The notes under the pieces: model-generated
What the model saw: only the letters and a program-made list of their open reading frames with translations
What the model was told of the DNA's origin: nothing
The model's database searches: none
Assembly: GCA_046563655.1 (NCBI GenBank)
Contig: CM102288.1
Location: 5,084,001-5,148,000, forward strand
Source of the DNA: Yuukianura sp. NJ FZ-2021
Lineage: Eukaryota
Length of the DNA stretch: 64,000 nucleotides
Direction: 5' to 3'
Part shown: positions 16,086 to 64,000 of the stretch, in pieces
Numbering within the stretch: the stretch's first letter is position 1
Layout: every line of letters begins with the position of its first letter
Translations under genes and position numbers: made by a program

Positions 16086-17732
16086 TTACACTTTCCAAGT
16101 TTCCTGTATTTCTGGATACTCCAGCAGCAGAATGTCACACATTTCAGATTCTACTGAACCTTTCAGTCCTTTATGTAAAATATCATAAGCTTCTTTGGCA
16201 TAAATGACTGTGTTGAATGACTGTTCTTCCATTCCTGTTACCACCAATCTTAGATCCTCCAGATCCCTCGCAGCTAACCATCGATGAAACCGAACTCTTC
16301 CTGCAAATTAAACAAACTTCAATTTAATAATTAAGATTTAAGACAACAGCAATTTAAAAGTTCATATTTAGGACAAACTGAGATTGATGTAAGAATGTGC
16401 TGGAACGTTTTGCATTCGAACTTACGAAAATTAACGTACCGACAAACATGTAGTATGATCCAGGAAACAACTTTTCAAGTACTGCCAGTACTTGTTCTGC
16501 GCAGGTAAATTTTGTTTTCAATTCTCCTTCTGAGTGGAGTTCCTGTATCTGACAGATTTGAAACATTTCTTGAATGATGAGAGCGTGATTGGGGTGTAGC
16601 CACTTTTCTTTTTCAGTTCTGCTAAGCGTGAGATTGACTGTGTCTTATCGATTGTGGCCAGTTTAGCTTCAACATTCCTCAATTGGATGGAGATGCTTGA
16701 CGATGCTTCGTCGTCCAGAACTTGATTGCAAGTCAAGCATTTCCACTGGAGACCATTCCATGGAGCGAGGCTAAAGTTGGAGCATGATGGGCACAGAATG
16801 GAGCTGAAAAACGAACCGAATTCGGTGGGATCTGAACATCGTTGACAAGTGCAGACGAATCCCCGGGATGAAAGGAGTCGATATCTCTCCGAGGCTGAGC
16901 TTAGAACGGGAACATAGGTGTTCGTAATCGCTTCTCCCGCTAGAATTTCCTTGGCTGCCATGACAACAACCCGGGAGCCTTGCGGGTCAGGGTCAAACTG
17001 GATATCGGTGTTCATGCAACAGGAATGAGCCATGAAGGAACCTAAAAAGTACAAATTCTCAACACTCTTTTGCTTCCGAAGCTCACTAAAAGCATTAGTT
17101 CTGAGGACTCCGAGGCAGTGAGCAGCATTTGTTAGAATGCTCGCAGTATTTTCATGGATACTCATGGCATTGCGGGCTGATTCCACTGGTTTTGAATTTG
17201 GTGACTCAAATAGGTCCCACGACAGAAGTGACATTGCATGGTACAGAGTCTGTGACGACCATGCCGAGGTCACCGACATGGATTTAGTTTTCGAAACGTT
17301 TGAAGATTGTAGTTCATTAATTTGTGTCCATTTTAAGGGATGATGTCGTTTGGTGGCCAAGGAGCGAATGACATTGATGAACTGGTAGAGGTCGTTCTCC
17401 TTATGCAAAATTCCTAGAAGACTAGGGATAGTAGAAAAGATGCGACATTCGATGTCATGTTCATGTGAACCATCCTCGAGACAACTGTGTGAACAAAATG
17501 ATAAGAAGCATTTGGAACATTGACATGCTAATGAAGTGTTGTACACGGAAAAACAGACTAGACAAACGGCTTCCGAGGAATCCAGAATAGCACTGGGACT
17601 TGGTCCCTGTACAATCGCTTCTTCGTCAATGATTACTTCTCCTGCACGGATGTCTCTTGCTGCAACTAAATGTCTTCCAAGCACTCCGTTCCATTTGATA
17701 GTATAGGGAGGTTGTTGATCCTGCATTTGCAT
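16086..17732 (-). CDS. SET and MYND domain protein (SMYD/SmydA family), with apparent frameshift near 16605
   Basis: GRHLVAARDIRAGEVII, MYND cysteines (CLVC..CSKC..FCS..C..H..EC), FMAHSC, GEAITNTY, FVCTCQRC. The C-terminal LHPNH motif lies in another frame; last exon ~16086-16300. Confidence 0.85.
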
Positions 17733-18799
17733 TGTTTCTTTGCTTCAGTCGTCTACAACCTGCTAGTTCAGAGATAATTTCTTATAGTTAGGTTTGAATT
17801 TTCCAATGGACTTTGTTAGTAAATTACTTTTTTAACGGTTGATAACTTACCTTCTTACCGCAGAAAGTAATTGAGTTGACGATGTAAAACTTTTTGTCAA
17901 ATTGAGATTTTGAGAATTGATAAAAAGACCGGGTGGAAGTAAGGTATAACGACTATCGTCGTAACCTGAAGGGTGGACAGAGCCAATCCGCCCATCTTAT
18001 GTGGGTACAATAGGGACTACACTACAGCTAGTGAAGAGATTTGTAGCCGCTAAAATCTAAAAACACAACGTATCCTAAATCGGCTACACATGTAGCCGCA
18101 CACCTACCGTTGGTTGATTTACTATGGTAAACTATGATTTAAAACTGTATTTTGGTCAATAAAAACGAGGTTTTGGTTTTTGTGTGTGTTTTTATACAGC
18201 AAAACATGAAATTGAACAAAAACAGCACAAGGAAACTTTAAGTTGACAATTTCCATTTTCCTATGTGTAAGTTTTTCCCACTGGCGTCTACAACACTATA
18301 TAGCAATATTTAATTTAACAAGAGGCTTCAAGTTTACGATCTCTAAATCGATGAGAACAATGTAATTCATATACAAAATCCAGATTTGATTTGATTTAGA
18401 CAAAAAAAAAAGACATATTGATGAAACAAAAAACCATTGTTTTTCTATTTTTTGACAAAAAAAACAAACAAAAGCTACCGACACAAACCGACCACAGCCT
18501 AGCCTAAGTACAAAGATTGTAGCCTCAAAGTGGCTACACCTTGTGGCTACGCCGTGTGCCTACAACTATGAGAGTTAAAGGTTACTCCAACCTAAGAGCG
18601 GGAGGAGGAAGGAGGGAGAGAGACTCCACCCGCGCGGGACTCCTCTTCTGTCTCGTCTCTCTCCTTTCTTTTTTCTTGTCAATCACTTGCTCAGTAAATT
18701 TCCAACGGTAAACATTTCCATTTTTCAATATCTCCGTCGTCCGTGAAAATCGAAACCAGATCAAGGGTGTTACAACTGGTTTTTTCAAACGGCTCTAGT

Positions 18800-21700
18800 A
18801 TGGCCGGAACATGGCGGAATCAAGCACAGTATCAGTCTCCAGAACTTATACTCGGAAGTTCCTCGGAGGAAGAAGACGAAAGTGGCCATGGATCAACACA
18901 AGCATATGAAGGTTTACAGAAAATTGACGACAGCGTTGAGGATGTCCGTGCGGACTCACCCCATGGCGGAACGCCATTGCAACCCAGAGAAAACGAGCCC
19001 ACGAACAGAGTGGACCATTTGGATATGAGCGATACCGAAGACAAGGAATCACCATTGATAAAGATCGTCAAAAAGGGAAGTACTCAGCGGCAGCGAATCT
19101 TCTCGGACTCAGATGACTCAGAAGAGGACAATTACGCATCGGCTTGCTCAGATAGCGCAGCAGAACAATCTATTCAAGATGTGGCCTCGTCATTGAATAG
19201 TTTCGCAGTATCTGTCAACAATGTACCAATAACTTCTACTACTCCAATGGGATCTGCACCCGCAAAGACATTCAACTTCAAACCGAAGGGCACTGAGCCC
19301 AGGATGAGCCAAATTCCAGTCTTGGTTGAAGAACAACCCGACGATGGCGCAGAAGCAGATGACGACGTCACAGAATCGTTCCGGTTGCTTGACATTGACG
19401 ATGATGATCAGCCTGCTCAACTTCAACCGAAACCACACTCACCTAAGCGATCTGAACAGCCCGGAACCAGTTCAGCCGGAACTGCTCATGGTCGATTGCT
19501 CAAACGTACCGAAAAGCCTGGCAGAAGTTCTGACGAGGGGACAGTTGATCTTGATCTCGACGATACCAATCCAGTACAAATCAATGACAGTCCAGAAGTC
19601 ATCGCTCCAGTCAGGATTCCACCCAAAGTCCCAGCATCTTCACAACCTTTGAAGACAATTTTTCTGGAAGAGTTGCCACAGAAACCAGTAGCAGCAGCAT
19701 CCAGCAAGGACTTTCTTCCGCCAGCGACTGACCATCATCAGGTTGACAGAGCTCTGACTCTTCTGGCCAAGTCCATGGAACTCGTTCCAGCACTGGAAGA
19801 GCAAGCTCCAACTCCGGACGGTTTTAAAACCAAACTATACCCTCATCAAGCTTACGGACTTCAGTGGCTCTGGTGGCGAGAACACCATGCCCCGGGTGGT
19901 GGCATCCTCGGTAAGCATTTTTCAATTAACTAGATTCCAATTTTCTAAATTTTGAATTTTTGAAAATGAGTTTTTGAAATTATGAATTTTTTGTTGATTT
20001 CAGCTGATGAGATGGGCTTGGGTAAAACTGTGATGATTATGGCGCTTGTGATGAAAAGTTTGGCAGAAGGCTCCCCCTCGTTTGAAAAGAAGGAAAACGA
20101 CTGGCATGGATCTCACAAAAGTAAGACTAATTTTGCATAAATTATAGTTTACTTGTTATAAATTATAATTTATAAACTATAAATTATGAAATAATTTTAT
20201 CACTTTATTCGCTGAAACGCTGTTTTTTGTTTTAGAGTTGACGCCGAGTCGCTGTACACTGATCGTAGTGCCACCAAGTGTCTTAGGCCAATGGGAGCTG
20301 GAGATCAAAGGGAAAACGGCCGGGCTTACTTACTATGTGTATCATGGACCCAACAGAGACAAAAGTGTCAAGAAGTAGGTTGAAAAAATATTTCAAAAAT
20401 TTTGTTAAAAATGTACGGGAACTGGAATTAATTTATAATTTCGTTTGATTTATATTTCATTTTTGTTTAGACTGAGTCGGTTTGATATCGTATTGAGCAC
20501 TTATTCCATCATTGCCAGCGAAATACCAAAAATTGGCCAAGACGAGCGTCATTACGTGGTAAGTATTTTACTTGTTTTTTTTTATGTTAACTCGAATTTT
20601 GAATGTCCCGAACTTTACTTGAATAGGGGGCCAGTCCACTGGTCAACATATTGTTCGAGCGTGCAGGGTTGGCAAAATGACGTCTTTTTCACGAAAATGA
20701 CGTCAAAAACGTTTAAAACGTTAAAAACGCGTCAAAAACGTCAGAAACGTCAAAAACCTTTCCTCCAAAAATTGAAATCTTTAATTCTAAATTGCCGGTT
20801 AACCTACATTGTAAACCTGCTAACTATTAGATTATGACGTATAACCGCTGTCAGTTCTCACTGCTGTTTATTCAAAATCCATTTCGTCTTCCATTAGTTC
20901 TTCTACGCCGACGTTGTTGTCTTCGTTTTCGTCATCTTCATCGTCCTGTTCCAGTTCCAGTGCCTCATCTGGAATATTTTGATCTTCCCATACCCACTTC
21001 AGATTTGATTGTAGTTGCTCTTTCGACGCTTTGGAATTGAGGTACTTATACATAAATGTCAGTTTTCCCGCTTTTGTATTTCCTAATCGATTCCGCAATT
21101 TTGAACGCACAAGTCCAAATGTGGAAAAAATTCGCTCCAGTCCGGCAGTTGAGGCGTTTGCTGAAAGATATTGAGCGCATAATTTTAGCCACGGCTCCTG
21201 TAACTTCCCCCAGTCGAAGATTAAATTGGGAGAAATCTTGACGGATCTCCACCATGTAAGTGGTGCAGTAGTTCGTAGTGTCTCTAAAAACAGATACGAT
21301 GGATCTAGATCAAATTGTTCCCAGATTGGGTCTTTTCCCCGGGGCATAACGATAAAGTGATTACTACGATTGACGGAAAAGTCAAAAAAACAAAAGGAGA
21401 ATTAAAACTATCCACGACAAAGTAACGACTTCTTTTGTTTGTTGTGAATTCCGCTTTCAAACCATCGAACGCCACGGGTTTTACTTAAAAATTTGAGCGC
21501 GAATGCAAGGTTTTATAAAAAATGAATTTGACAAAAAAGACGTTTCTGACAAGGGGTCTTGTCATAAACGTTTTTGACAGACGTTTTTGACCGACGTCAT
21601 TGTCATTTTGCCAACCCTGCGAGCGTGTCGTCCTAGACGAAGGACATACCATCCGGAATGAGAAGACCAACTGTGCTTTCGGGGTTTGTCAAATCCATTC

Positions 21701-23864
21701 TAAACATCGATGGATTGTGACAGGCACACCCATTCACAATAGGTAAATTTTTATTATTGAAATTCCAACTTTCATATTTTCCTAAAATTTTAAACTGAGA
21801 CCTGGATTTTTTTTAGGCCTAGTGACATGTTCTCTCTCGTCAAGTTCATCCGGTTGAGTCCTTTCGACGACGCAAAGTTATGGGATTACTGGATCGGCTT
21901 AAAAAAAATCTCCGACACTGCCAATAGTCAAGCAAGACTCAACCTCATCGGACGAGCGCTGGTTTTGCGACGGACCAAGGAAGAAATCGCATCTCTCGGA
22001 GACAACTGTCCATCAATTCCTTCCAAGACCATGATCGACGAGGAGTTGATCCTAAGTGATGCAGAGCAAGAAATCTATGACCATCTCGAGGGCTATGCAG
22101 CGTAATCCACACTTCACTGTTTTCTAATATGATTTGAAGAGTTTTTGATTGATTTTTGAAGAAAAAAATTGTTGTTTCCAGGTCCATTTGCAAACAATTT
22201 TTGAAGGAATTTGAACAGAAGCAGATGATGCGTGAGAAGCAAAGTGCTGCCAACAAGTACATTGCAAATGCTGCGAAGCCAAAGAACCCAAATGAAGTCA
22301 GTTTTACAGCTGTGTTCACCTTAATTTTGCGCCTGCGTCAATGCTGCCTCCTGCCTTACTTGATACATGAGGTAACATTAAGTTTAACTAAACACATTTA
22401 ATTAATTAAAAAGTTAAACTAATTAAGTTGATTTATTTCTTGAACTTTTAGATGATCGAGCCGGACGAACTGGATGGCGAAGCAGATCCGAACTCCTCCG
22501 ATCTCCCCGAAGAGGACGACATCATTAGCTTGAAGAATCCTGTATTCGCCACGGACTTTGTTTCGACAAAAATTTGTCGGGTGAGGAAATAATCTAGTAG
22601 TTTATACTAATTAGAAGTTACAGCTGAGAAGGAATTCCGGAATTTCATAATTCATTTGCTTAGTCTCAAAATTTTTAGCTTTAAAGCCACCGTTGGCGCT
22701 AAAACTTGCTAAAAATGTAGCTTCCTCGACTGGATTTAACGTAAATTTTCCAAACTCTACTTTTTTTAAACAAAAAAAACTTCACCACACTTTCTAACTT
22801 TCTAGCGTATTACTTTTGGAGAAAATTCATGATTGGGCTAAGAATATCTCTAAAATGTATTTTCCTTATTCAAGAAAAATTGAAATTTTCCAAAATATTG
22901 TTTTTTGAAAACGCCATGCCACCGTCTGTCTAACTTTTTAACGTAATTACTTTTCGAAAAAAAAAAGTCATAGTTTCGCGACAAAAGTTAGGACGATTGC
23001 ACGGGTATTAGGGCGAAGCCCCAGCAAGCAGGCGCTGCATTCACCGTTAAAATTAACTATTTTTGCCAAAATTTTTCAAAAACAGAAAGTACTTTAACAA
23101 GTTTTTTTTTTCTTTTTAGTTAATTGAAGACTTAAAGTGTTTACGTGATGCTGCTCAGCGTGAGAACCGCAAAATGGAGAAGGTCGTGATCGTGTCGCAG
23201 TGGACATCATTTCTCCATCTCATTAAAACTCATCTCACGAGACATGGGTATAGGACGTGTGAAATCACTGGTAAGCGATACAATCTCCAGTGAAGATCGA
23301 CGATCACCAGTGAACTCTTTTGTTTTTTGTTTTAGGAAAAACGAAGATTGGTGACCGAGCAGATATTATGATGCAGTTCAATGGTAAACAGAGACGTCCA
23401 GAAGTTATGCTCCTGTCGCTGATGGCTGGTGGCGTGGGGCTTAATCTTGTGGGAGCCAATCACATGTTCTTCATGGATTTGCATTGGAATCCGCAGAATG
23501 AACTCCAAGCGCAAGATCGGATTCATAGATTTGGCCAGACGAGAGAAGTGATAATTCACCGGTGAGTTGACTAAGATTTTTCTTCAAATTATGAATTTAT
23601 AACTCCAAAGTATGAAATTATGACTCTGATTTATGGAGTAAGGGAATCAAAATATGAATTTCTGGAATCAAATTATGGAATTATGTAGTAGCATTGTGGA
23701 ATGTTTTGTATTTCAGGTACTTGGTTAAGGACACAATTGAGCAGCGAGTCCTGAAACTTCAACAGCAGAAACTGGATTTAGCCAATGGACTTTTGTCCAA
23801 CAAGAACAAGAAGGTGGGAACTGGGCTGTCCATCCAAGAAATGCGACAACTGTTTAATCTCTAA
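18800..23864 (+). CDS. TTF2: Transcription termination factor 2 / lodestar (SNF2 helicase), interrupted by a hAT insertion
   Basis: Acidic low-complexity N-terminus; LYPHQAYGLQWL..GGIL|ADEMGLGKT, TLIVVP, RVVLDEGHTIRN, TGTPIHN, LRRTK, LILRLRQCC, KVVIVSQWTSFL, LLSLMAGGVGLNLVGANH..DLHWNP..QAQDRIHRFGQ. Confidence 0.92.
20664..21619 (-). mobile_element. Non-autonomous hAT DNA transposon (956 bp internal-deletion derivative)
   Basis: Perfect 18-bp TIR CAGGGTTGGCAAAATGAC; perfect 8-bp TSD CGAGCGTG (20656-20663 and 21620-21627); internal ORF with hAT C-terminal motifs. Confidence 0.95.
20868..21347 (-). CDS. Truncated hAT transposase ORF (N-terminal stub fused in frame to the C-terminal dimerization domain), 159 aa
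   Basis: MPRGKDPIWEQF (BED-finger-like start) joined to PLTWW..LSANASTAGLERIFSTFGLVRSKLRNRLG..KAGKL (hATC motif S..ER.FS...R.RL) plus an acidic tail. Confidence 0.8.
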   Translation of the reverse strand: MPRGKDPIWEQFDLDPSYLFLETLRTTAPLTWWRSVKISPNLIFDWGKLQEPWLKLCAQYLSANASTAGLERIFSTFGLVRSKLRNRLGNTKAGKLTFMYKYLNSKASKEQLQSNLKWVWEDQNIPDEALELEQDDEDDENEDNNVGVEELMEDEMDFE

Positions 23865-29658: not shown

Positions 29659-30641
29659 ATTGAACACATCCGGCCTCTCTTCTCATCCGGATCATTGGAT
29701 TTCCGACAGATATAACTTTTAACCGTGTAGTACATTATAGCTTTCAAAAAAAAAAATTAAAAAAACCCAACTTATATTTTTTCAACTTTTTATAAAACTG
29801 ACTCTAAACGTTCAAATTCCTCACTTCTTCTTACTATGTAGTCATGGCCAAATCTACGTTCGAAAACCATGTTCATCTTCTAGCTTTACATAAATTTACA
29901 TACGTTCTTGTCCGTCGTAGTGACAAACAGCATCATGCTTCATCAAATGTTCTAATTTCATTCTATTGGCTAACGATGGCATGAATGGAATTTTGAATTG
30001 CAGCGGGCAAAAACAACTTGAAGATCGAAAAATATCTCAAAGAGTGTTGGCATTTACTAAAATTGTGCTTTAAGTTTAATGCGTTTTCAAAAAGCCTTTG
30101 TCAGTTTCCCATGAAATATTTAACATTTCTATCACGAAATGTTAGCAAATATTGTAAAAGGTTCGCAAAATAAAGTAAGGCTCTGCAAAACAGAACGAAT
30201 AGCATAAGGATCGGTAAACAGTACTTCAATAGAAGGGTATGTCAATTTTGAAATTAATTTTCTTACGAAGTCGAAAAAATTAAATTCCTTTCATGTGGTA
30301 ATTGTTCGTAGTCTAAAACTGTGTCTGGTCAAACATTCAGTTGTTAAAGTGCTCTTGGCAAGAAATTGTAAAAAGCATAAGGAATTAATTCGTTTTTAGA
30401 GTTTAGAGTGCTAAAGGTATAATTTGCAATGCGAAAATCGAGTAAAACCGCTTTGTACCGATAGAACTCAGCCATTTCCAAATTTGCCATATAGACGCCT
30501 TCATCCTCTCATAAATTCCAGATTCTCAGAGTTTTTTAATAATTAGAAATTTGAATTTTTAAGTTTCTTAACAAAACTCACACTACCCATATAATAACAT
30601 TAAATATTCCCGAATTCAAAATTTTAAGTGCTGTTTAAAAG

Positions 30642-32054
30642 ATGGCAAATTCTGAATTTTCAGTTTCCGAAATCTCCCTCATTCGCGCCTTGGCTCGAAT
30701 TGGTAGTTTCATTGGGATATTCCCAATATCTTTGAACAATTCAAAATTTCACTTCCGCTGGAAAACTCCTTCCGGCATTTGTTCAATTTTTCTTTTTCTT
30801 TTTAATACCATTTTAGTTCCATGTATGTTTGTTTTTACTAAAATGTTAAACAACATCTTTGTTGAGGAAAGATCATTTGCCAAAGTATATAGCATGTTTT
30901 ACATCAAAATTGTCCAACTATTTCTTTATCTTAACCTTACCTGTAGCATATTGGTGTACTACACATACTTTTATACCCTCCCACGAATTTTGAAACTGTT
31001 CATGACAATAGCATTTCACGTTCAGAACAGCACATTTCAATGTAGTTACACATGTAAACAAATTGTAAGACTCGTTGCTCCTATTTTACTTTTTCTTGTT
31101 CACTATTCAATTTTGATGTACTACATTGTGCGTAGAATCAGGCTTTTTGAAACTGCTTCTTCAAAACTTGAAGAATATTATTTTCAAATTTTTTCTTACA
31201 TACACTTACTGGGTTTGACTTTACTCGAATTTAGTGAATTTTTCCTTGTTGCTGTTGTAACCTTAATAACATCAATAGTTGAGCGACGCCTATTAACGGT
31301 TGAGCAATCTCTATTTCCTGAAAAAACTAAACGTTTAATTTCAAAATCTTTGGATGACCGAGCATGGAGCGGAAGAAATTTTTTGCCCAATTTTCGTTTT
31401 GATGCCGCTGCAGCTGAAATAATTCGGTTGGCAGATATTTTTGAACAATTTGCTGACGCCGTTCAAATATTTCTTAGTATCCACCTAGGTTTTATGACAG
31501 TCATTGTTCTTATTTGTTCTTTCGAGCTCCTCACTACGTTGACAATAGCATGGCATCTTTTCCCTGTCGTGTATGTCATGGATGTGCTGAATTTTGCAGT
31601 GGTGTTTATGAAAATCGCTTGGATTGCCAATTCTGGAGAACGGGTTTCAACAAGGGTAAACAAAATTAAGCGGATTTCTCCTTTCAATTTTTCAAATTTC
31701 TTGAATAATGATGGATTTCCGGATGACTTAATTTATTTCGTTTTTGAAACGTTGCTGTTGTTTTCCTTTAGAAGAATCTACTTGTACAGAGAATTGCAAC
31801 AATCCCGACGACGCTGGTGTTGGATTCTGAGGGACTGAACTATTTGAACAACCTGGTAGCAAATGTTTCATTTCAATTGACAGCACTTGGATTTTTCAAA
31901 ATTCGGAGATCGTTGCTAACATCTGTAAGCAATTTAGGCAACTCTATAGTGCTAATAGAACTGAACTGAGCTTTGAAATGCCAAAACTTTTTTTTTCTAG
32001 ATTCTGAGTGCTGTTGTAACTTACAACGTCGTTTTATACCAATTTAACACTTAA
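30642..32054 (+). CDS. Gustatory receptor (7TM GR family)
   Basis: Long first exon 30642-31655 plus two short phase-0 3' exons (31772-31924 ..FQLTALGFFKIRRSLLTS; 32001-32054 ILSAVVTYNVVLYQF) carrying the diagnostic TYxxxxxQF motif. Confidence 0.9.
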
Positions 32055-46373: not shown

Positions 46374-48544
46374 TTATTCGAATGAACTTCGTTGAACTTC
46401 GTTGATGAACAACACCTTGTCATGGTACTTCATGATAAGATTTGTGTCATGTTCCATCTCCGGAGTGGGGTCGTCGAAGGGCTGAGAACATTAAATAAAC
46501 ATGGAAATTTACTTTTAGTAAAATGTAATGTTCCAAAAGAAATATCATTCACATAAAAACTTTGGTTTGTTTGCTTGTTTTAAAAAAGGCAGAAAAAAAA
46601 GCTATTTACAGCAAAAACCAAACGATAGACTTTAAAAAAGCACTTTTTTACTGAGCACTGGTAACCACCCACCACATGCGTGGTTACCATTCCAACGCTG
46701 TTGGTTGATACAAAGGTGGTTATACTGGGTGGTTACAGCGTTTATAAGTTGCCAATGCCGTGTCTAGTGCTAGCGCCACGGATTGCCTAGTTGGCTAATA
46801 AAAAAAAATTGTTTCTAAACAAATTACCGGGTCATCGTGTGTCAAAAACGTGAGTTGTCGGAGACGTTTGAGCCGTCCAGTGGCGGAAGCGTACAAAGCA
46901 GGGTAAATGTAGTTAAACATGAATTCAATTTGAAGATCCTTCAGTTCTAAAAAAAATAATACATTAAGTTAAAATGCATTGCTAAAACTCGTCTTTAAAT
47001 GAGTTTTTTTTGCTTACTACTGATTTCTCCAATTGGATTTTTGTCAACGCCAAACGTTTTTCCTTTGAAATCTTTGATACGCTGAAGCACATATGCTCGC
47101 CCTCGGATGGAATTTATATCGTTGTCATACGGTTCGCCAGTTAGCACTTCCCATGCCCTTCCCGTTATCTTTAAGCTTTCCAAGTGAGGCAAATTTTTTA
47201 CTAAGGCATAAAACGCATCAAAATCTGGATGGAACGATTGTCCAGTGTCATTATGTTTCCGTAAATTCACACTAAGTTTTTTCAAATTTGGAAACAGGAA
47301 ATGTGCATAGTTTGAAGTTATGTTTGTGACACTGGTCAAACGTAGTTGGTGCACAGTGTAGAATGGGTTGGTGTGTAAATTAGGAAAGTCGTCATAGTGA
47401 CTATCGTCTTGAAAAAACTTGAGTTTCGCCAAAGGTAAAGTTTGAATCCACTTCCAAATTGAAGTTTTGAAATCCAAGTTCAGTTCAGTCGGAAGTGAAA
47501 TAGCAAGAGCAACAATTCTGGGTTGCGGAGTTAATGCTACAAGCTGATTGCAAACATTTTGAAACGCGTCGGTAATAATTCCGAGCCGAAGTTTGACTTT
47601 TGTTGATGTTGAGGGAAGGCAACGTAACAAGTTTGGTAACTTTTGGAGTTCGAGTGTGCGCATAATTTTTTCATGATAGTTACCCGCATTACCTGCACGG
47701 TAACGCAACTGCAACGGAATATCTGGGTAAATGTAGTCCACTCGGCAAAAGTAGGGATAGTAAAGTAGCGAAAGTACTTTCAGATGAGGCGAGTGCTTGA
47801 TTATGTTTTCACATATCGTTGGATCCTCAGAAGAATCTCCATAGGGATCTGTGAATTTGACCTTGAAATTTTTTAAGTTTCGAAACGCTTGAGCACAACT
47901 TGCTTCAGTTGTGGCGGGAAATTTGGTTCCGTAGCAAACCACTAGATACAGAGATGTTAAATTTGAAGCGGTAAAAAGCATAGTTTGAACTGATCGCCCA
48001 TAGTCTCTTCCCCATGAGTGACTTTTTGTTTTCCAATTTGGAAGATCCAAAGTCCATTTCTTACGGATCTTCGGCAGTATCCTGATTTCAGTGACTTGTG
48101 TAGTTTTCATAAAATGTTCAATTGTATTTAGAGCAATGTCTTTATCAACTTCAAACGCAAACTTGGAAAATGGAACTTCTGATCTTGGAGTCGAGCGCAT
48201 AAGCAAGGAGAAGTATTTAATGTCGTTGTTGCTTCGGAAGTGAATTGGCTTGTGACATTTTCGTAGCACAAGAAGCATTGATGGGTCGTCCCTCCAACTG
48301 CGACAAACCAGGCGACAATTCAGAATGTCGTTACTGGAAAGCAACGACGCTATTTGGCCAAAAACCTTTGGAAAAAGTAAAATATTTGACAATAAACTTT
48401 GTCAGTATGAATAACTCATAGAAAAATTTTGACAAAAATGTTTTTTTAAGTCAAAAATAAAAAAATTACTTCAGTTGGTAGAGTATCAAAAATATCATGT
48501 TGCTGATTTGCGTCTCCTGAAGCCCAAATTTCCTCCATCTCCAT
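46374..48544 (-). CDS. F-box protein with degenerate leucine-rich repeats (4 exons)
   Basis: Exon 48470-48544 splices to 48365, giving FDTLPTE|VFGQIASLLSSNDILNCRLVCRSW (F-box). LxxL repeats (FPNLKKLSV, LPHLESLKI); further exons ~46829-46947 and 46374-46481. Confidence 0.8.
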
Positions 48545-49558: not shown

Positions 49559-51094
49559 TTAAACTTTCGTTGGAATAGATTGTGGATTGAAGAAGAAGTT
49601 GTCTGGGTCGTACTTTCGCTTGACTTCAACAAGCCGTGGCAGATTTGTTCCAAAATAGCGTTCGAGTGGTTCCTCTAGGTCCAAGTCGACATAATTTTGA
49701 TAAGATTCCTTGTGATCAAAAATTTCCTTCCCAGTATCAAAGAATTTCTTCAAATATTGAGCAATTTGATCATGGATAGTTGAATTTTGAAAATCTTGAT
49801 CGTGGTAGTTAGCAATAATGTTGTAAAGCGTTCCATTTCTGTGAACAAATGCTGTCGCATTTTTTGGAATTTCGGCAACTGCTCCACCGTAACCTTCAAA
49901 GTAAATCAGCATATTCGTAGGCATACCGTCGACAAGTTTTTGAAACTCGCGAATTTCCGCTGCTCCGAGTTTCTTATTCACGTAAAACGATTTTCTTTGC
50001 TGAAAAATTTTGCCAGGAGATTTTCTGTCTAGTTTTGCCAAATCCGAGGCCGTTTCAAGTTTAACTCCTTCAGATAAAATTTCTCCTGAAAATTCCTTCC
50101 CATTTCGAAACAGAAAATCTTCGTAAGTCAAAAACTGTTTTGTTAAATTTCCGTTTTGTGGAAACTCGCTCAAGATTTTTTCAAAATTTGTGCTTTCACC
50201 AGTCCAGTCCATGAATTGCACAAAAACTTCTTCTCCCATTATGTCGAGCTCCATGGACAAGTCATCTGGTGCTGCCTGGACAACGTGTTGCCATTCACAG
50301 AACACTTCTGGAAATGAAGTACGTTCAAACGACAAAGTTCCCATGAACATCGTTTTTGGCGCGGGGTAAACTTTGAATTTGAATTTCGTGACAATTCCAA
50401 AATTTGATGCAACTCCACCACGCAAAGCCCAAAACAAGTCAGCATTTTGGTTTTCGTTGACCGTCAGAAGTTGACCTTGCGCAGTGACGATGTTGACCTC
50501 CACGATATTGTCCAGCGCTAGACCAAATTTTCTGACAAAAAAGCCCTCCCCACCGCCAGTAGCCATTCCAGAGATTCCAATCGTTGGACAAATCGCGAGC
50601 GGTGTGAAAACTTGTCCAAGTTGAAACAGTTTCCATGCCAACGGACCAGTTAACATTCCCGCACCAACGGTAGCAATCATCTTCTTTTTGTCAATATCCA
50701 CCCATTCAAAATTTCTTACGTCGACAATCACGGAATGCGAATTTCCAAATCCAAATTTTCCGAGCGAATGTCCGCCACCTTTCGGCACAAGTCGGATTTT
50801 GTATTGCTGAGCACATTTTACTGTACTGACAATGTCTTGTTCAGTGTCAGCCACAACGTATGCTAAAGGACTTAGGTTTTCTCCGTTTGCTTGCCATTGG
50901 TAGTTCAGATCTTGGTAAATCGCTGAATCGCATCGGCGCACAATGCTGTCCGACTTCACTCCCAACTTTTTCAAACACTTTTCAAAAAAGTCGTAATCGC
51001 ATTCACCCAAACTCTCAGTTTTAGAAATTTCTTGTTCACCAGTAGCCAGCATTAGCAAGGCGAAATGTATCAAAAGTGACTTCAGTTTAGTCAT
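49559..51094 (-). CDS. Secreted FAD-linked oxidoreductase, berberine-bridge-enzyme-like (intronless, 511 aa)
   Basis: Signal peptide; KGGGHS, VGAG, CPTIGISGMATGGGEG, GLALDNI, DLFWALRGG..NFGIVT, C-terminal YQNY.D..YFG.NL.RL..VK.KYDP.NFF..PQSIP (BBE domain). Confidence 0.93.
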   Translation of the reverse strand: MTKLKSLLIHFALLMLATGEQEISKTESLGECDYDFFEKCLKKLGVKSDSIVRRCDSAIYQDLNYQWQANGENLSPLAYVVADTEQDIVSTVKCAQQYKIRLVPKGGGHSLGKFGFGNSHSVIVDVRNFEWVDIDKKKMIATVGAGMLTGPLAWKLFQLGQVFTPLAICPTIGISGMATGGGEGFFVRKFGLALDNIVEVNIVTAQGQLLTVNENQNADLFWALRGGVASNFGIVTKFKFKVYPAPKTMFMGTLSFERTSFPEVFCEWQHVVQAAPDDLSMELDIMGEEVFVQFMDWTGESTNFEKILSEFPQNGNLTKQFLTYEDFLFRNGKEFSGEILSEGVKLETASDLAKLDRKSPGKIFQQRKSFYVNKKLGAAEIREFQKLVDGMPTNMLIYFEGYGGAVAEIPKNATAFVHRNGTLYNIIANYHDQDFQNSTIHDQIAQYLKKFFDTGKEIFDHKESYQNYVDLDLEEPLERYFGTNLPRLVEVKRKYDPDNFFFNPQSIPTKV

Positions 51095-51890
51095 GTTGAC
51101 GGTAAGCTGGGTTTTTAAGAAATTTCTTTTGCGCGGCGAAAGTGGAGCACTTCCTTATGTACCTGACTTGACTTTTTAGTTACATGCTAAATATAAAGTA
51201 CCAGTTGACTAATTGGGCCAGCAAATTAAAAGCACATTTGATAAAGCACTTTTGACAGCTTTAATATGTAGTAAGTCATGAGCATTTGAACTAATTACTG
51301 CAGTAATTAACTTTTGGCACAGGGTATTTTCCGGGTAAGTATGCAAAGTATTCAGGATAACTGTAATAAAACTTTTCTTAATTAACATTAACATTAATGC
51401 TTACAACAAATTGCTCTAGAAATCAATTACTGGTAAATGGGAGTGGCCTAATTTCCAGCAAACGCAACAAATTTCCTTGTACTTAAACTACAAAAACCAT
51501 ATGTACTTTAAATGATTGTTTTATTAAACGTTGTAACTATGGACATTATACATCTTATGAACTCTCGTAGACTTTGAACGCTCAACTATTTTATATTTCT
51601 GAATTCTATTCCAAGTGTCTTGTTAGAGAGTTAACTACAAATATGTTGCTAGTAACTACATGCTGATATTTTTAGTTCACTTTTTTCCCTCTTCAACTAT
51701 TGTTTTTTAAGTGTAGTAACACTAACACTCAGAACAGGTCTAACTAAAACGTTCTAAAAACTCCTTCTAAAAAACCTATCGTTTAACGTTAGTAGAAACA
51801 TGTTTTTGAAATAAGGGAGTGTAACACGCCGGAGTAATACAATATGCCTGCTATTTTTTGTGCAAATTGTTTTTCTTTCGTTACAAAAAT

Positions 51891-55214: not shown

Positions 55215-57788
55215 TTACCGTAAAATTTCAAATTCCGAGCTCAAAGGGTTGGTAGAGGCATTACGCTTTGTTTGTTTTCTGCTCTCCCTCCAAAACAGTT
55301 TTCTCCAAAATTCTAATCTCTCCGGTAAGTGAGAAAGTGAAACTAGGATGAACTTGAATTGACGAAAGAGAGGTTTTAGTGTAGCAATGTTAAGCAAACC
55401 GCGTAAAATGTTAGGTCGCTTGTGAATAAAGTCTAAAATATCGGTGGCAAGTAAGCGATAATCTGCTGTACAGCATAATTCCAAGAGATAGAAAACAAAC
55501 GAACATACTAGTCCTACAACGCAGAAGTAGGTGCAGGATAAAATGTTTGTGCCCATGGTTATTTTTTTCGGAATTCTGTTAAGAATTTTTAGCCTACTTG
55601 CATAAGATGTGTGGTCATTATAGTATTCCATACACCAAAACATCCAAAACAAACTTATTCCATTCTCAAGTATGGATTGCAGTTGTCGCTCAAGTCTCCA
55701 TTGGACAAGCCGAAAAAGGGGATAAGGAAGTTGAAACATAAAACCAGCAGGTAATGATATTGGGGTTTCTCCTATAGTAAAGCCAGGCGGAAACGAAGAA
55801 ACGTTGATACGTTTAGATTTCTTGAAGAGTACTTGAGATACCGACTTTTGAACAAGGTGTTTGCGCTCCACAATTGCAAACTTACTACATTTGAGAAACC
55901 CTGCAAGCATATGTCTCCGTCGGACTTTGTTATGGTAACTGTAGAAGGCGAGGTTGCCCTTTTTGGCAGAAACAGCAGCCACTAACCAATAATCTTGAGC
56001 ATTTTCAACTATGTATTGGCGACAAAACTCATACGTTACCTCGACTTTGCTAAGGTACTTGAGTCTCAAATACTTTAATTGGGATTTGATCCTAGGCGTT
56101 AAAGATGAACATGGGTGGCTACGTGAATGGGATTCCCCATGATGCACAGTTGGTGTGATACCTAACTCAACGCAATCGCAGTAGACTGGGTTTATGAACG
56201 TATAGGTTTGATTCAACTTTGTTCTGTGGTAATTCATTAAACTTAATGCACTATCTCCTGTAATTAAAAACCCGTCCAGGTCCTCAATGTTGGCCCAAGT
56301 GTGGTATACCTTGGGTGGGCCAGAAACCTGGACTGTTACAAGGCTTTTGTACGCAGTTACCAGAACCACAACCATGAGTAGCCAACCACCAAAAACAATT
56401 CGATGGTATATTTCTATTTTGAACTTTGTCAGGATTCCTTGTCGTATGGCGAAACTGACTTCTAAGAGGCCAAGCACTGTAGATTCCAAGTACATAGCCA
56501 ACAATACTACTGATTCCTTCCACGGCTGCTGCTGCTTGAGCGAAATAAGTGTCATGGTTGCAGGACCGAGCAAAGCCACAACTACGGTAATCCCAATCCA
56601 ACTTGTAAAGTCATATGGCTGAAAGTAAATTTCCAGAGACATGGCTGACTTGACTCCATCGCAAGTTGTGAATGTTATATCGGTCATGTGGGTTAAGCGG
56701 AGCCTTCTTGAAAACTGATACGAGTTTTCCACAAACAAAACGTTTGGATGCATGTAGACCCCGAAAATCTCTTGAACGATTGGAATTGTTAGTTGATGTA
56801 GAGGTACCCTGAACTGGTGATAGTTCTGTGGTAGCTCGGGCACCTCATCAACCACGGCGATTGTGTAACAGGACGGCAGCGCAGTCAGTAGCTGAAGAGC
56901 AAACACTATTTCAACATCAGTTATACGACGTTGAAATGAGTCAACTGAACGCCGTAGGTTTTGTAGGGTTGAACGTACTGTACTTGGCGAACCAACGAAT
57001 TTGGTGATAAATTCATCAGTAATGTTGACATCTGTTGAGCGACAAATACCGCCATCTTCTATGCCCAGTCGAACATATTTCCCGGTTTTCCTGAGTTTGT
57101 AGACCGTAAAGCGCAGCAAGTTGTTGTTGGCTGGTAGGCATATGTCGTCTGACCTACCGCTGTAGTTTAGTCGACACACTAGAGGCACTCGGTACATGTC
57201 GTCTCTTCTGTGGAATAGTACACCTATGAGATCAATTTCAACGGCAAAAAAGTAGCGACGCTGCCACTCAAGAGATGGCGCAAAGTACTCCTCAAGCCAA
57301 ACGACGGTAATCGGTATCTCTGGGTTTCTCACGACCTCAGATTTTGGGTACTCTGCTTTCCGATCGTGGAATAGTACAAAGGAAACTGCTGCACCCGGGA
57401 AAAACAAAAATTTGTCCTTGTCAAGTTGCTTGGTACCAAGGAGATTCCACCAGTTCATTATATAGTGTATAAAAAAATATATGACACAAAAGTGCGACTT
57501 GGAATTTTGAATATCCAAATACATTTCTTGATTCCAATTGGACAGCGTTCCTTTGGAGAAAAAATTGTCGAGGTTTCTTGGATTCGACCCTACGTCCCCA
57601 ATAATCAGAGGAATCGACGGCGTGACTAGGCCAACCGTATTGCTGTCGAGAAATAAGTGCACCCTGCAGTCGTTGTAATAGTTCAAGAAATAGTTCAAGC
57701 CTGTAACCATTTTTTCCCTATGATCTGCAAATGATACGGACAAAAAGAGAAGCGAGGTAAATATGAATATGTTGAAATCCATCCCCAT
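55215..57788 (-). CDS. Divergent ionotropic receptor (IR/iGluR-like), single exon, 857 aa
   Basis: Signal peptide; FTTC..YFQPYD..SWI (pre-M1/M1), RIVFGGWLLMVVVLVTAYKSLVT (M3, SYTANL equivalent), ILENGI..FW and final TM (M4). Confidence 0.75.
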   Translation of the reverse strand: MGMDFNIFIFTSLLFLSVSFADHREKMVTGLNYFLNYYNDCRVHLFLDSNTVGLVTPSIPLIIGDVGSNPRNLDNFFSKGTLSNWNQEMYLDIQNSKSHFCVIYFFIHYIMNWWNLLGTKQLDKDKFLFFPGAAVSFVLFHDRKAEYPKSEVVRNPEIPITVVWLEEYFAPSLEWQRRYFFAVEIDLIGVLFHRRDDMYRVPLVCRLNYSGRSDDICLPANNNLLRFTVYKLRKTGKYVRLGIEDGGICRSTDVNITDEFITKFVGSPSTVRSTLQNLRRSVDSFQRRITDVEIVFALQLLTALPSCYTIAVVDEVPELPQNYHQFRVPLHQLTIPIVQEIFGVYMHPNVLFVENSYQFSRRLRLTHMTDITFTTCDGVKSAMSLEIYFQPYDFTSWIGITVVVALLGPATMTLISLKQQQPWKESVVLLAMYLESTVLGLLEVSFAIRQGILTKFKIEIYHRIVFGGWLLMVVVLVTAYKSLVTVQVSGPPKVYHTWANIEDLDGFLITGDSALSLMNYHRTKLNQTYTFINPVYCDCVELGITPTVHHGESHSRSHPCSSLTPRIKSQLKYLRLKYLSKVEVTYEFCRQYIVENAQDYWLVAAVSAKKGNLAFYSYHNKVRRRHMLAGFLKCSKFAIVERKHLVQKSVSQVLFKKSKRINVSSFPPGFTIGETPISLPAGFMFQLPYPLFRLVQWRLERQLQSILENGISLFWMFWCMEYYNDHTSYASRLKILNRIPKKITMGTNILSCTYFCVVGLVCSFVFYLLELCCTADYRLLATDILDFIHKRPNILRGLLNIATLKPLFRQFKFILVSLSHLPERLEFWRKLFWRESRKQTKRNASTNPLSSEFEILR

Positions 57789-58755
57789 TTTTGAATAAAG
57801 ATTTCAGGAGTCAACTGATTGCTTCTTTGGCTCAACTATTGGCGTTTCAAACTGGCACAAAAATGTAATGCCGTGTAAACTGTTTTAGGTGTGGGCTAAA
57901 GAAGAGCATGACTAAAAACACGAAAATTGGTTTGAGTTTCATGTCAGTAAGGTTGAATATATTAATGAATTTGCACAAACATAATTCTTTCCTGTGGCTG
58001 TATAATATTGATAGAGTGTCCACGTGTCTACTTCAATTTGAGTATCCTAATTAAAAATGAAGCTTAAAAGTTCATAGTAGATTTGAAAAACTATTAATTC
58101 ACATCATGGCACGACTGTGGAAAATGAGGCGTAAAAGATGGTGGTCAGCAGGGGTTTAAGTTATGCCAACGTGGCTTTTCAAATTTTGAAATCAGTTAAA
58201 AGATAGGGCTACAATAATGGTCCAATTCCAATTGGAATTGTTGTAGGTTTTATTGTAATTCTTGATATGTTACAATTCATGGAATCAATTTCCAACCTAT
58301 TCCAGAAACAATCTGCTAACTATTGTAGGTAAAATTTACTGAAGATTTTCCTTTCAATTGTAACAATTCAAAACGTATTAAAAAATTAGCACCTTCCTGC
58401 ACTCTCTAAATGACACTTTCTACGCGGAGAAACAGTAACACTGCTTACGCAATTGACAACCGACTCCTCCTTCATGGACATCGTCATACTAGAATAGTTG
58501 TACAAATTGTGCCAAACTTTCCTTTTTTTTCTTATTTTTATCGAAAAACGACTTTGAAAAATTGTCTCTACGAGAGTTGCGTCAAGGAAGAAAGCTTTTA
58601 CCATTCAGTACTTGAAACTTGAGGAATCGACAAATTACATGGGAAACAAATTGGCACGGTCACAACCCTGGTAGGACGTTGACATAAAATTTGGAAGGGG
58701 AAACGTGGCCATTGAACTTGACCTGTAGAGGAAATTTTTTGTCGTGATTGAGTTG

Positions 58756-61700: not shown

Positions 61701-63214
61701 AGTCCTGTGATTTGGAACGTGAAAGCCCCTGTGTTGAGCACGGTCAGCATCTGATAGCCTAAGGTTTTACCGTCATCTTCTTCCGTATCGACATCAGTAC
61801 CGGTTTGGATCGGTCGAAAATATATGTAGAACCCTTCAATAAAATCACCGGAAGTCACGACCTGAAAAAGCACAAAAACTGATTTTGAGCAAGGTTTGTT
61901 GACTTTGATTTTTTTAACAGGTTGAGTAATACTTCTTGTTTTTTCGATTTTGCAAAAAAAGGGCGTGTCTTTCATTCCACGATATCGTAGTCATAACAAT
62001 ACAGCCGGATTTTTTAAATTTGACATACCACGAATTGGTACCAATTTTTTGGATACCATTTTTTTTCTTGACAACAAGACAGGTAGTAATCAACCTGTTA
62101 AAGAAACTTAACGTTCCGTTTTCAAAAAACCTTGGTTGTGGGCATTTTCTATATTTTTTAAAGTTTTGTAGGTTTTTTTTAAAAGTTGAACTTATACCTG
62201 CCATTCTAATTTTACTGAAGTAGAAGACGTAGCATACGCTGTTTTTAATAGGACGACAACCGGCGACTCGAGTTGTTCCCGCGCTTTGCTTACGTCATCG
62301 CCGGCACTCTGCCGAGTGGAGAACGTAGTTGTTGTGACAGGATCCGAAAGTGGACTGGGAGGTGACAAAATCCCATCAGCACTAACGCTTCTGACGAAAA
62401 ACAAGTATTCTGCATTGGGTTTAAGATACTGAAGAGTGGCTGTCTCTATGGATACTGTTGCTCCTAGCAACCACTCTGATTTGACCTCTTGAGCACTGTA
62501 GTACTCCACATTAAACGTGATTCTTCTAATCGAGTTTCCTCTACTGGAGAAAGTTGCAGTCGGCAGAGAGGGAGTCGACGATAATTGAAAATCTGAGGGT
62601 GTTGACTCGGGAAATTTGAAAAAATTTGTGGGAGATTCATTTGTAGTTTGATTGGAATTGGTTCTGGGCCTGCTTTGAATAATTAGATTGTACCCGCCGT
62701 CGTCTTCATCCTCGTCCTCCATTTCCCGCAACTTTTCGACGCCCGTCTCAAACTGCCCCAGTGCCTCCTCATAGTCATTGTCATCCTCATCTTCTTTTGG
62801 CGGTTCTTTCAGGTTCAAATTTCCTGAATTTGGATTGTCCGAGGAAAATTTGGCGCCAATTTTCAAATCCATGTCGTCCATCGGTTCATCTCCGAGCATC
62901 GGTTCGGTTTTTTCGGAGATTCGCTTTTCCGACTTTTGCTGAGTTTTAATAGTTACCCGGGGTTCAGCTGAATTCGGTTCGACCGAAAAGTACTTTGGGT
63001 GCCAAGCTATAGTGACTGAAGTGGAGTCGACCTTGACAATGTGTGGTTTCATGGGTGAAGGGCGCAGGATATCTCCGTTGGAACTTCCTGGAAAGCCGGG
63101 GTTAAAGTTTGGGGTATTTTGAGACGTAACGGTGAGGAAGCTTCTCCAAACGTATTTGCCCGAGCGTGAAGACGCCACGCACTCGTACATTCCCGCATCC
63201 TCCAAAGTGAGATC
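58789..63214 (-). CDS. robo: Roundabout receptor, Robo2/3-type (3' portion; 5' Ig exons beyond window end)
   Basis: End of an Ig domain (DAGMYECVASS), three FN3 domains (STSVKLEW, FLIPFYKNVDGRPSN, GLILGYQL), TM AWFIALIGSVIFLMLLVFVFALY, CC0-like YAVV and CC1 PIAYATTTLV; no proline-rich CC2/CC3. Confidence 0.9.
60607..61334. mobile_element. TA-flanked MITE (728 bp) carrying nested sequence
   Basis: Perfect 23-bp TIR CAGTGGATTCTCTAAATAAGGGA with TA on both sides; possible inner TA|CCGTAA..TTACGG|TA element at 60674-61268. Confidence 0.88.
60903..61109. repeat. TGCGCA-based minisatellite flanked by (TA)n
   Basis: Tandem variants of TTGCGCAG(G/T)TTGTGCGC(A/T)G, ~19-nt unit. Confidence 0.9.
61356..61581. 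mobile_element. TA-flanked palindromic MITE (226 bp)
   Basis: TA|CAGTGGACTTTCTAATTTATGAATTG ... CAATTCATAAGTTAGAAAGTCTACTG|TA; related partial copy at 13077. Confidence 0.85.
61918..62097. mobile_element. Possible TTAA-flanked MITE in robo intron
   Basis: TTAA|CAGGTTGAGTAATAC ... GTAGTAATCAACCTG|TTAA. Confidence 0.5.
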
Positions 63215-64000
63215 TAGAATCAGAAGATCAAACTTCTAAAAATAGAAAAGGGAAGCTCCCTGTGGAAAAAGTCATAAATTGCCCAGCTCATGCTTCATTT
63301 AATCTTGATTGAGTCTAACAAAAATGGCCAAGAACAAGCTGAACAACCCCCTGTAGGCCCCCCGCCAACTTTCTCAGCGGCAATTCCAACTTTTGAACAA
63401 CTTTGTTAAGAACCAACTTTCTGCCAATTTTCATAATTTTTCAAAAACCTAGCGATTTTCAATGTGCAGATTCTTTTTTGGAACAAACGAATTGACAAAA
63501 ATTTTGAATAAATTGTAAAAACTACAACAGAAATTTTGTTACACCGAAACAAGGAGTTTTTGCTCAACAAAATGAAACCCTTAGCCTTAAACCTTTAGCG
63601 CTAAATTCTTATAGTGTTCTATGCTTTTCCTATTGCTGTGTTCCAGTTAATAAATTTTTGAAGGAATTCGGAGAATGTTTCTGAGTCTTTTACTATACTT
63701 TTTAGTGTTCTAGAAACGCAGAGATGCTGGATGCTGGAGATTGAGGAATGTGTAGGTTTTAATTTTCCCAGAGAGAGAGAGAGTTTTGGAGAAAGTTCTC
63801 TTGTTCATCATGTTCCAGATTCTTCATTTCGCCTCAAAACTTTATTCTGTCGATTCAAGATTTCCCGCCAGGCAAAAGTTGAGAGCTGAGCGAACCGACG
63901 AGGGCTGAATCCGAATTTGGCGGAATGAGGGATGAGGGGAATGTGATCCGCATGCAAAGGAATGCGGCAGATGCTTTCTCCTAACCAACCTTCCCCTTAA

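Follow-up and report, generated by a model that had tools for sequence, protein, structure and literature searches.

The closest described counterparts of the insertion considered here belong to the Ac/Ds system of maize, a hAT system. Ac has a terminal inverted repeat (TIR) starting CAGGG and makes an 8-bp target-site duplication (TSD), and one class of maize Ds elements, reportedly called Ds-del, combines an internal deletion with short TIRs of the same start, 8-bp TSDs, subterminal repeats and heterogeneous sizes; insertion of such an element into an exon gives a mutant allele. Exonic Ds1 elements can be spliced, having three donors and two acceptors near their ends according to excerpts of one account (PMC5432752). 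Introners with TIRs and TSDs are likewise DNA transposons in coding exons that can recruit an AG from the TSD, and the sections of Gozashti et al. (2022, PMC9860276) that deal with them describe excision in frame by their own or adjacent sites at many loci. Drosophila lodestar and human TTF2, SNF2 ATPases without a RING insert, represent the type of host gene involved, and the portion of PMC10481674 concerned with their loss describes mitotic defects in early embryos.

In the window (the whole stretch of 64,000 nucleotides that was analysed), a hAT element interrupts a coding exon of a gene of this type. The element resembles maize Ds-del in its internal deletion, TIR start, TSD length, subterminal repeats, variable family sizes (548-2441 bp) and exonic position; however, the host is an animal and no intact partner transposase was found among 13 candidates. 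In contrast to Ds1, it lacks an AG within its TIR and offers a donor-like site that is out of frame at this locus, and where Introners are excised in frame, use of the corresponding sites here would leave 8 additional nucleotides. The allele also differs from described loss alleles of lodestar and TTF2: it is a transposon allele of natural origin, the arthropod concerned is not a model organism, and orthology was assigned from best hits instead of a tree.

Host gene

The TTF2/lodestar-like SNF2 helicase gene lies on the forward strand at 18800-23864 and encodes 911 aa once the element and one copy of the TSD are taken out, its start codon being a guess. Exons 1-4 are at 18800-19910, 20004-20120, 20236-20374 and 20471-20558, exon 5 is split by the element into 20627-20663 and 21628-21742, and exons 6-11 are at 21817-22101, 22182-22371, 22452-22580, 23120-23270, 23336-23561 and 23717-23864. 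Native intron 4 (20559-20626, 68 nt) is intact, with a phase-0 donor GTAAGT and the acceptor AATAG. The 5' part of exon 5 (GASPLVNILFER) carries the conserved residues L(-11), I(-8) and F(-6) before Walker B, while the 3' part holds Walker B (VVLDEGH) and motif III (VTGTP). Excising 20664-21627 gives GASPLVNILFERVVLDEGHTIRN within a 911-aa open frame of 11 exons and 10 GT-AG introns, and no further stop or frameshift was found across the 911 codons of the model, bearing out the initial annotation's view of a hAT insertion, with TIR and TSD, into a coding exon of a TTF2-like gene that is otherwise intact. The gene has one long intron (22581-23119, 539 nt), which contains a high-copy repeat with internal duplications of about 140 nt.

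Pfam matches to SNF2-rel_dom and Helicase_C were obtained exon by exon, with exon 1 giving no match, and the RING pattern is absent between the lobes of the gene model. Four homologues were recovered with exon 6, the one that is named being a spider protein (P0003) labelled transcription termination factor, and this protein matches the TTF2-like gene best among the 17 SNF2 loci of the genome. A second intact TTF2, which the initial annotation had suggested looking for, was not found in two exon searches (13 and 6 matches, top candidates only being scored in the genome): one copy matched at 100% and the others at no more than 49% identity. The two best of these others were considered as a second TTF2 and rejected because of their motifs, by which we take them to be SWR1-like and Brahma-like SNF2 proteins. 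On best hits, without a tree, the gene is classed as single-copy and TTF2/lodestar-like.

The element and its family

The element (20664-21619, 956 bp) is antisense to the host gene. Its left TIR (20664-20681, 18 bp) is CAGGGTTGGCAAAATGAC and the right TIR (21602-21619) is the perfect reverse complement of the left; the 8-bp TSD CGAGCGTG is present at 20656-20663 and again at 21620-21627. Subterminal repeats of the AAAACGTC type occur near both ends. A remnant open reading frame of 159 codons on the minus strand (20868-21347) has the N-terminus of a transposase fused in frame to a C-terminal part, and its Dimer_Tnp_hAT match in Pfam (E=7e-4, 19.8 bits) is under the curated cut-off of 21.4. With its 8-bp TSD, short TIRs, subterminal repeats and transposase remnants, this internally deleted element is a non-autonomous member of the hAT superfamily. 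The 159-codon frame has kept its start codon and is overlapped downstream by an AATAAA (20872); it is speculative, but conceivable, that the truncated transposase frame could yield RNA antisense to TTF2 or a repressor-like peptide. Of 500 shuffled sequences, 3 gave an inverted 18-mer match, an upper bound since self-complementary 18-mers were also counted, and the genome contains 29 exact TIR matches compared with none for a reversed control. Together with the perfect 8-bp TSDs of 13 of the 15 two-ended copies, these figures argue against a chance pattern.

Searching the genome (98.7 Mb in 22 contigs) produced 37 matches to the element, and the 15 two-ended copies are 548-2441 bp long. Most of these have an internal deletion of their own, and the 956-bp form was found once. 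The matching segments of the other copies are 84-99% identical to the element in the window, and their TSDs are still perfect. The perfect TIRs and TSD had been taken to imply a recent insertion, but as most copies are perfect although they differ by up to about 15%, this feature dates an insertion weakly and loosely. The longest copy matches DUF659 (Pfam, E=4e-12), yet is broken; DUF659 is presumably a mark of hAT-type transposases. Among the 13 genome candidates scored, none was an intact transposase, though other haplotypes may carry one.

Two of the 15 copies are clearly, and one more is probably, in coding exons, as judged by reading frame and splice signals only. Pfam found no domains in the short flank peptides of copies L017, L014, L005, L022 and L015, so their exon status rests on those same two features. 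An in-frame AG in the TSD, on either strand, occurs in 4 of the 15 copies, one of these four being in an apparent coding exon. In the sister copy L017:947-1698 (G000:C6:5778899-5779650), also in an apparent coding exon, a TIR donor and a CAG in the TSD would allow in-frame removal with two amino acids added. A 97% relative (L014:1003-1699, G000:C2:229031-229727) lies within a Ser/Thr-rich open frame on the minus strand and has no matching 8-bp TSD, and its site is possibly rearranged or imprecise. Another copy (L015:1501-2430) is situated some 26 nt inside an intron, and the preceding exon resembles, by its motif, a myosin motor segment.

Reading frame and splice routes

The element splits exon 5 just before Walker B. 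When the frame is read through into the element it continues FERAGLAK and then meets a TGA at 20678-20680, within the left TIR, at codon 503; this stop supports the null allele that the initial annotation had given as its fallback. Skipping exon 5 entirely shifts the frame. The initial annotation had also proposed that splicing of 20558 to 21624 could remove the element in frame, and in the gene model its coordinates and phases (phase 0 at the donor at 20559), the cost of 11 aa and the retention of DEGH are all correct. As a route, this join is open in frame; as a rescue it is unlikely, since it would use a GAG acceptor (21621-21623, in the right TSD copy, with the exon resuming at 21624), bypass the intact native acceptor at 20627 and lose conserved residues.

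The donor-acceptor pairs, counted without routes that use two cryptic introns inside the element, give a stop in 79 of 88 cases and an open frame in 9. All five open pairs that keep DEGH pass through the GAG at 21621-21623, while the other four, through 21637 or 21643, lose the Walker B Asp as read from the sequence. The acceptors at 21663 and 21666 also preserve the frame; they were rejected because they delete DEGH. Joined to the native donor, the competing acceptors CAG 21581 (out of frame) and TAG 21637 each run into a stop. The native introns have a YAG acceptor in 10/10 cases and a GTR donor in 10/10, these tallies covering only the ten introns of one gene. Excerpts of a moss study that cites earlier work (PMC3095350) give the acceptor preference as C>T>A>G, with very rare use of GAG.

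The sequence before the proposed acceptor had been described as a pyrimidine-rich tract of right TIR and TSD with an AG. The tract is native-like, having 11 pyrimidines in 15 nt against a native range of 8-15, but the AG is not a novelty of the insertion: it is a base pair of the host TSD and is already present in the empty allele at 20658-20659, and there is no AG within the TIR of the element. Of the ten native acceptors, the one at 20627 is the poorest in T. A weak donor-like GTTGGC occurs at 20668, within the left TIR; its combination with the TSD AG adds 8 nt here and is out of frame. Removal of the element as an Introner was considered on this basis and rejected, the only pair that gives an addition of one amino acid being GC with GAG.

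Consequences for the protein

Of 153 homologous proteins, 143 could be compared before Walker B, ten having been dropped (seven without the motif and three starting too near it). Relative to the Walker B Asp, position -6 is W or F in 143/143, positions -11 and -8 are each aliphatic in 139/143, and position -4 is Arg in 141/143. The form lacking 11 aa has Gln, Arg and Tyr at positions -11, -8 and -6; Tyr at the W/F position is a mild change. Scored across positions -12 to -5, the motif gives -19.1 for this form, compared with 9.6 for the native sequence and a minimum of -3.1 among the 143 homologues. Its spacing is 22 aa, and because 5 of 132 homologues equal or undercut this value the shortening would not by itself be fatal. 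An AlphaFold model is available for the homologue P0002 (66% identical, mean pLDDT 82), which represents neither the host protein itself nor the shortened form; in it, the lost residues fall on a helical turn (118-120) and on a strand (121-129), of which they cover the first half and which ends in the Walker B Asp. The form with one Arg added keeps all native residues and has an ungapped motif score of -13.7.

Empty site and haplotypes

Contigs from four of the five DNA runs listed were compared, three (X1, X2 and X3) from one sample and one (X5) with another organism label. The empty-site allele that the initial annotation had proposed as a check is present: contigs of X1, X2 and X3 (3/4 runs) contain the exact empty site, passing from 20655 to 21620 with 964 letters skipped and eight letters fitting both sides, and in X2 a single contig of 1804 nt spans it with 1004 and 800 letters on its two sides. 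Because the exact pre-insertion allele exists in these contigs, the insertion is not fixed, whether or not their sample is the source of the assembly. The sample is possibly the assembly's own source, and presence of the empty site gives no allele frequency. A second X1 contig (20656-21621) skips the same length with only five letters shared at the joint, which may represent another haplotype or an excision footprint. The two X1 empty-site contigs have a summed depth of 239 compared with 246 and 260 for their neighbours; such values hint at a minority insertion allele, although the depth of a contig does not measure how common an allele is.

Neither insertion junction is crossed by any of the contig pieces listed, with 1238 further pieces lying outside the listing and rare variants being dropped from contigs. 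X5 has no joint at the insertion site, one of its contigs ending ambiguously at 20663, and in another X5 contig 395 nt of the intron 22581-23119 are replaced by 104 other letters. Contig depth over the element is roughly 8-60 times that of its flanks, which is not a copy number. Among the 35 of 394 listed differences classified in exon 1, those derived in the window comprise 4 nonsynonymous (N) and 6 synonymous (S) changes and those derived in the alternative 11 N and 8 S, so that exon 1 of the window haplotype shows no sign of decay in this small sample. Haplotypes of exon 1 differ densely within one sample (19153-19264, 19491-19525), with 14 substitutions and small gaps in about 110 nt, which suggests very high diversity or pooled animals.

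Probable and alternative interpretations

The insertion is probably an ordinary null allele, rare or heterozygous, that was captured by the assembly while intact alleles segregate. A Ds-like, internally deleted hAT element would have entered, on one haplotype, exon 5 of the single TTF2/lodestar gene. Most transcripts of the insertion allele would be spliced to the native acceptor at 20627, run into the TIR and end at codon 503, ahead of both Walker B and the entire second ATPase lobe, and with six introns downstream they would be probable targets of nonsense-mediated decay. The null would be recessive and would persist sheltered by segregating intact alleles, in a heterozygote or in pooled animals, the haploid assembly having happened to retain the insertion allele. 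Any product spliced at the GAG would be minor and probably misfolded beside the ATP site. The anatomy, the frame with its stop codon, the family of about 15 copies and the intact empty allele are observed; the course of splicing, decay and recessive inheritance is inferred. The insertion could also be real DNA that is not inherited, arising from a jump that was somatic or new and confined to a few molecules or to one pooled animal, or else a mis-join of the assembly. The X1 empty-site depth close to that of its neighbours, a weak hint given that depth is not an allele share, and the X2 contig that crosses the site unbroken are consistent with this, but a mis-join would not produce an 8-bp duplication, pasting from another locus conflicts with a deletion structure unique among the 15 copies, a new jump finds no intact transposase among the 13 candidates scored, and contigs drop rare variants in any case; we regard such an origin as unlikely. 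That TTF2 is dispensable and the insertion fixed, through gene loss or because a second copy does the job, agrees with the reference carrying the insertion. The empty allele largely refutes this unless the sampled organism is a cryptic species different from that of the assembly, and the absence of other lesions from the 911 codons and of a second copy among the searched matches, the next being other SNF2 proteins at no more than 49% identity, makes it extremely improbable.

Function of the allele through spliceosomal removal at the TSD-borne GAG, whether from the upstream donor (-11 aa) or from a GC donor (+1 Arg), is quite unlikely overall, and a new intron is less likely than an ordinary broken allele, which is the most likely reading. 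In the first version, splicing of 20558 to 21624 removes the element within an enlarged intron and the protein works without 11 residues. The open frame with DEGH, the strong native donor GTAAGT, a tract with a native pyrimidine count, a weak native acceptor, Tyr at the W/F position and a spacing near the short end of that seen in homologues all speak for it, as does the precedent of spliced exonic Ds1 in excerpts of PMC5432752. It would nevertheless need an acceptor class seen in 0/10 native introns and very rare in the passages quoted from PMC3095350, the intact TAG at 20627 would have to be skipped while CAG 21581 and TAG 21637 compete and lead to stops, L(-11) and I(-8) would be lost with a score far under the homologue minimum, and no rescue is needed because an intact allele exists; it is therefore very unlikely. 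The second version, near-perfect removal between a GC donor at 20663 (CGT|GCAGGG) and the GAG at 21624, keeps the frame open with one Arg added, and the in-frame TIR-donor and CAG-in-TSD route of the sister copy L017 offers a parallel, as do Introners that use TSD splice sites and add codons in the relevant part of PMC9860276. Two poor sites at once would be required, however, a GC donor where the gene has GTR in 10/10 and a GAG acceptor, and the added residue would disturb a fixed W/F-x-R spacing (R at -4 in 141/143; ungapped score as given above), so that this route is even harder to credit.

Genomic context and significance

Other open reading frames with Pfam matches in the window are a SET domain frame divergent from TTF2 (16518-17744, minus strand), a 7tm_7 chemoreceptor (30639-31838, plus), an F-box frame (46995-48401, minus), a long FAD/berberine-bridge-like oxidase (49559-51154, minus) and an fn3/Ig protein (62192-63235, minus). 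The 7tm_7 receptor indicates an arthropod. An open frame of 862 codons (55215-57803, minus) matched no Pfam family at E<=0.01.

The reference alone would suggest that TTF2 has been lost, although intact alleles exist, and calls of gene loss need to be checked against reads. If the GAG rescue were true, it would make the locus a rare animal example of presence/absence polymorphism of an intron; the conserved mitotic helicase would then have a non-canonical intron, newly born and segregating, adjacent to its Walker B motif. Under the preferred reading of a broken allele, it is instead a negative case beside the sister copy L017, whose TSD happens to provide an in-frame CAG, within a hAT family that appears to have been recently mobile and to strike coding exons.
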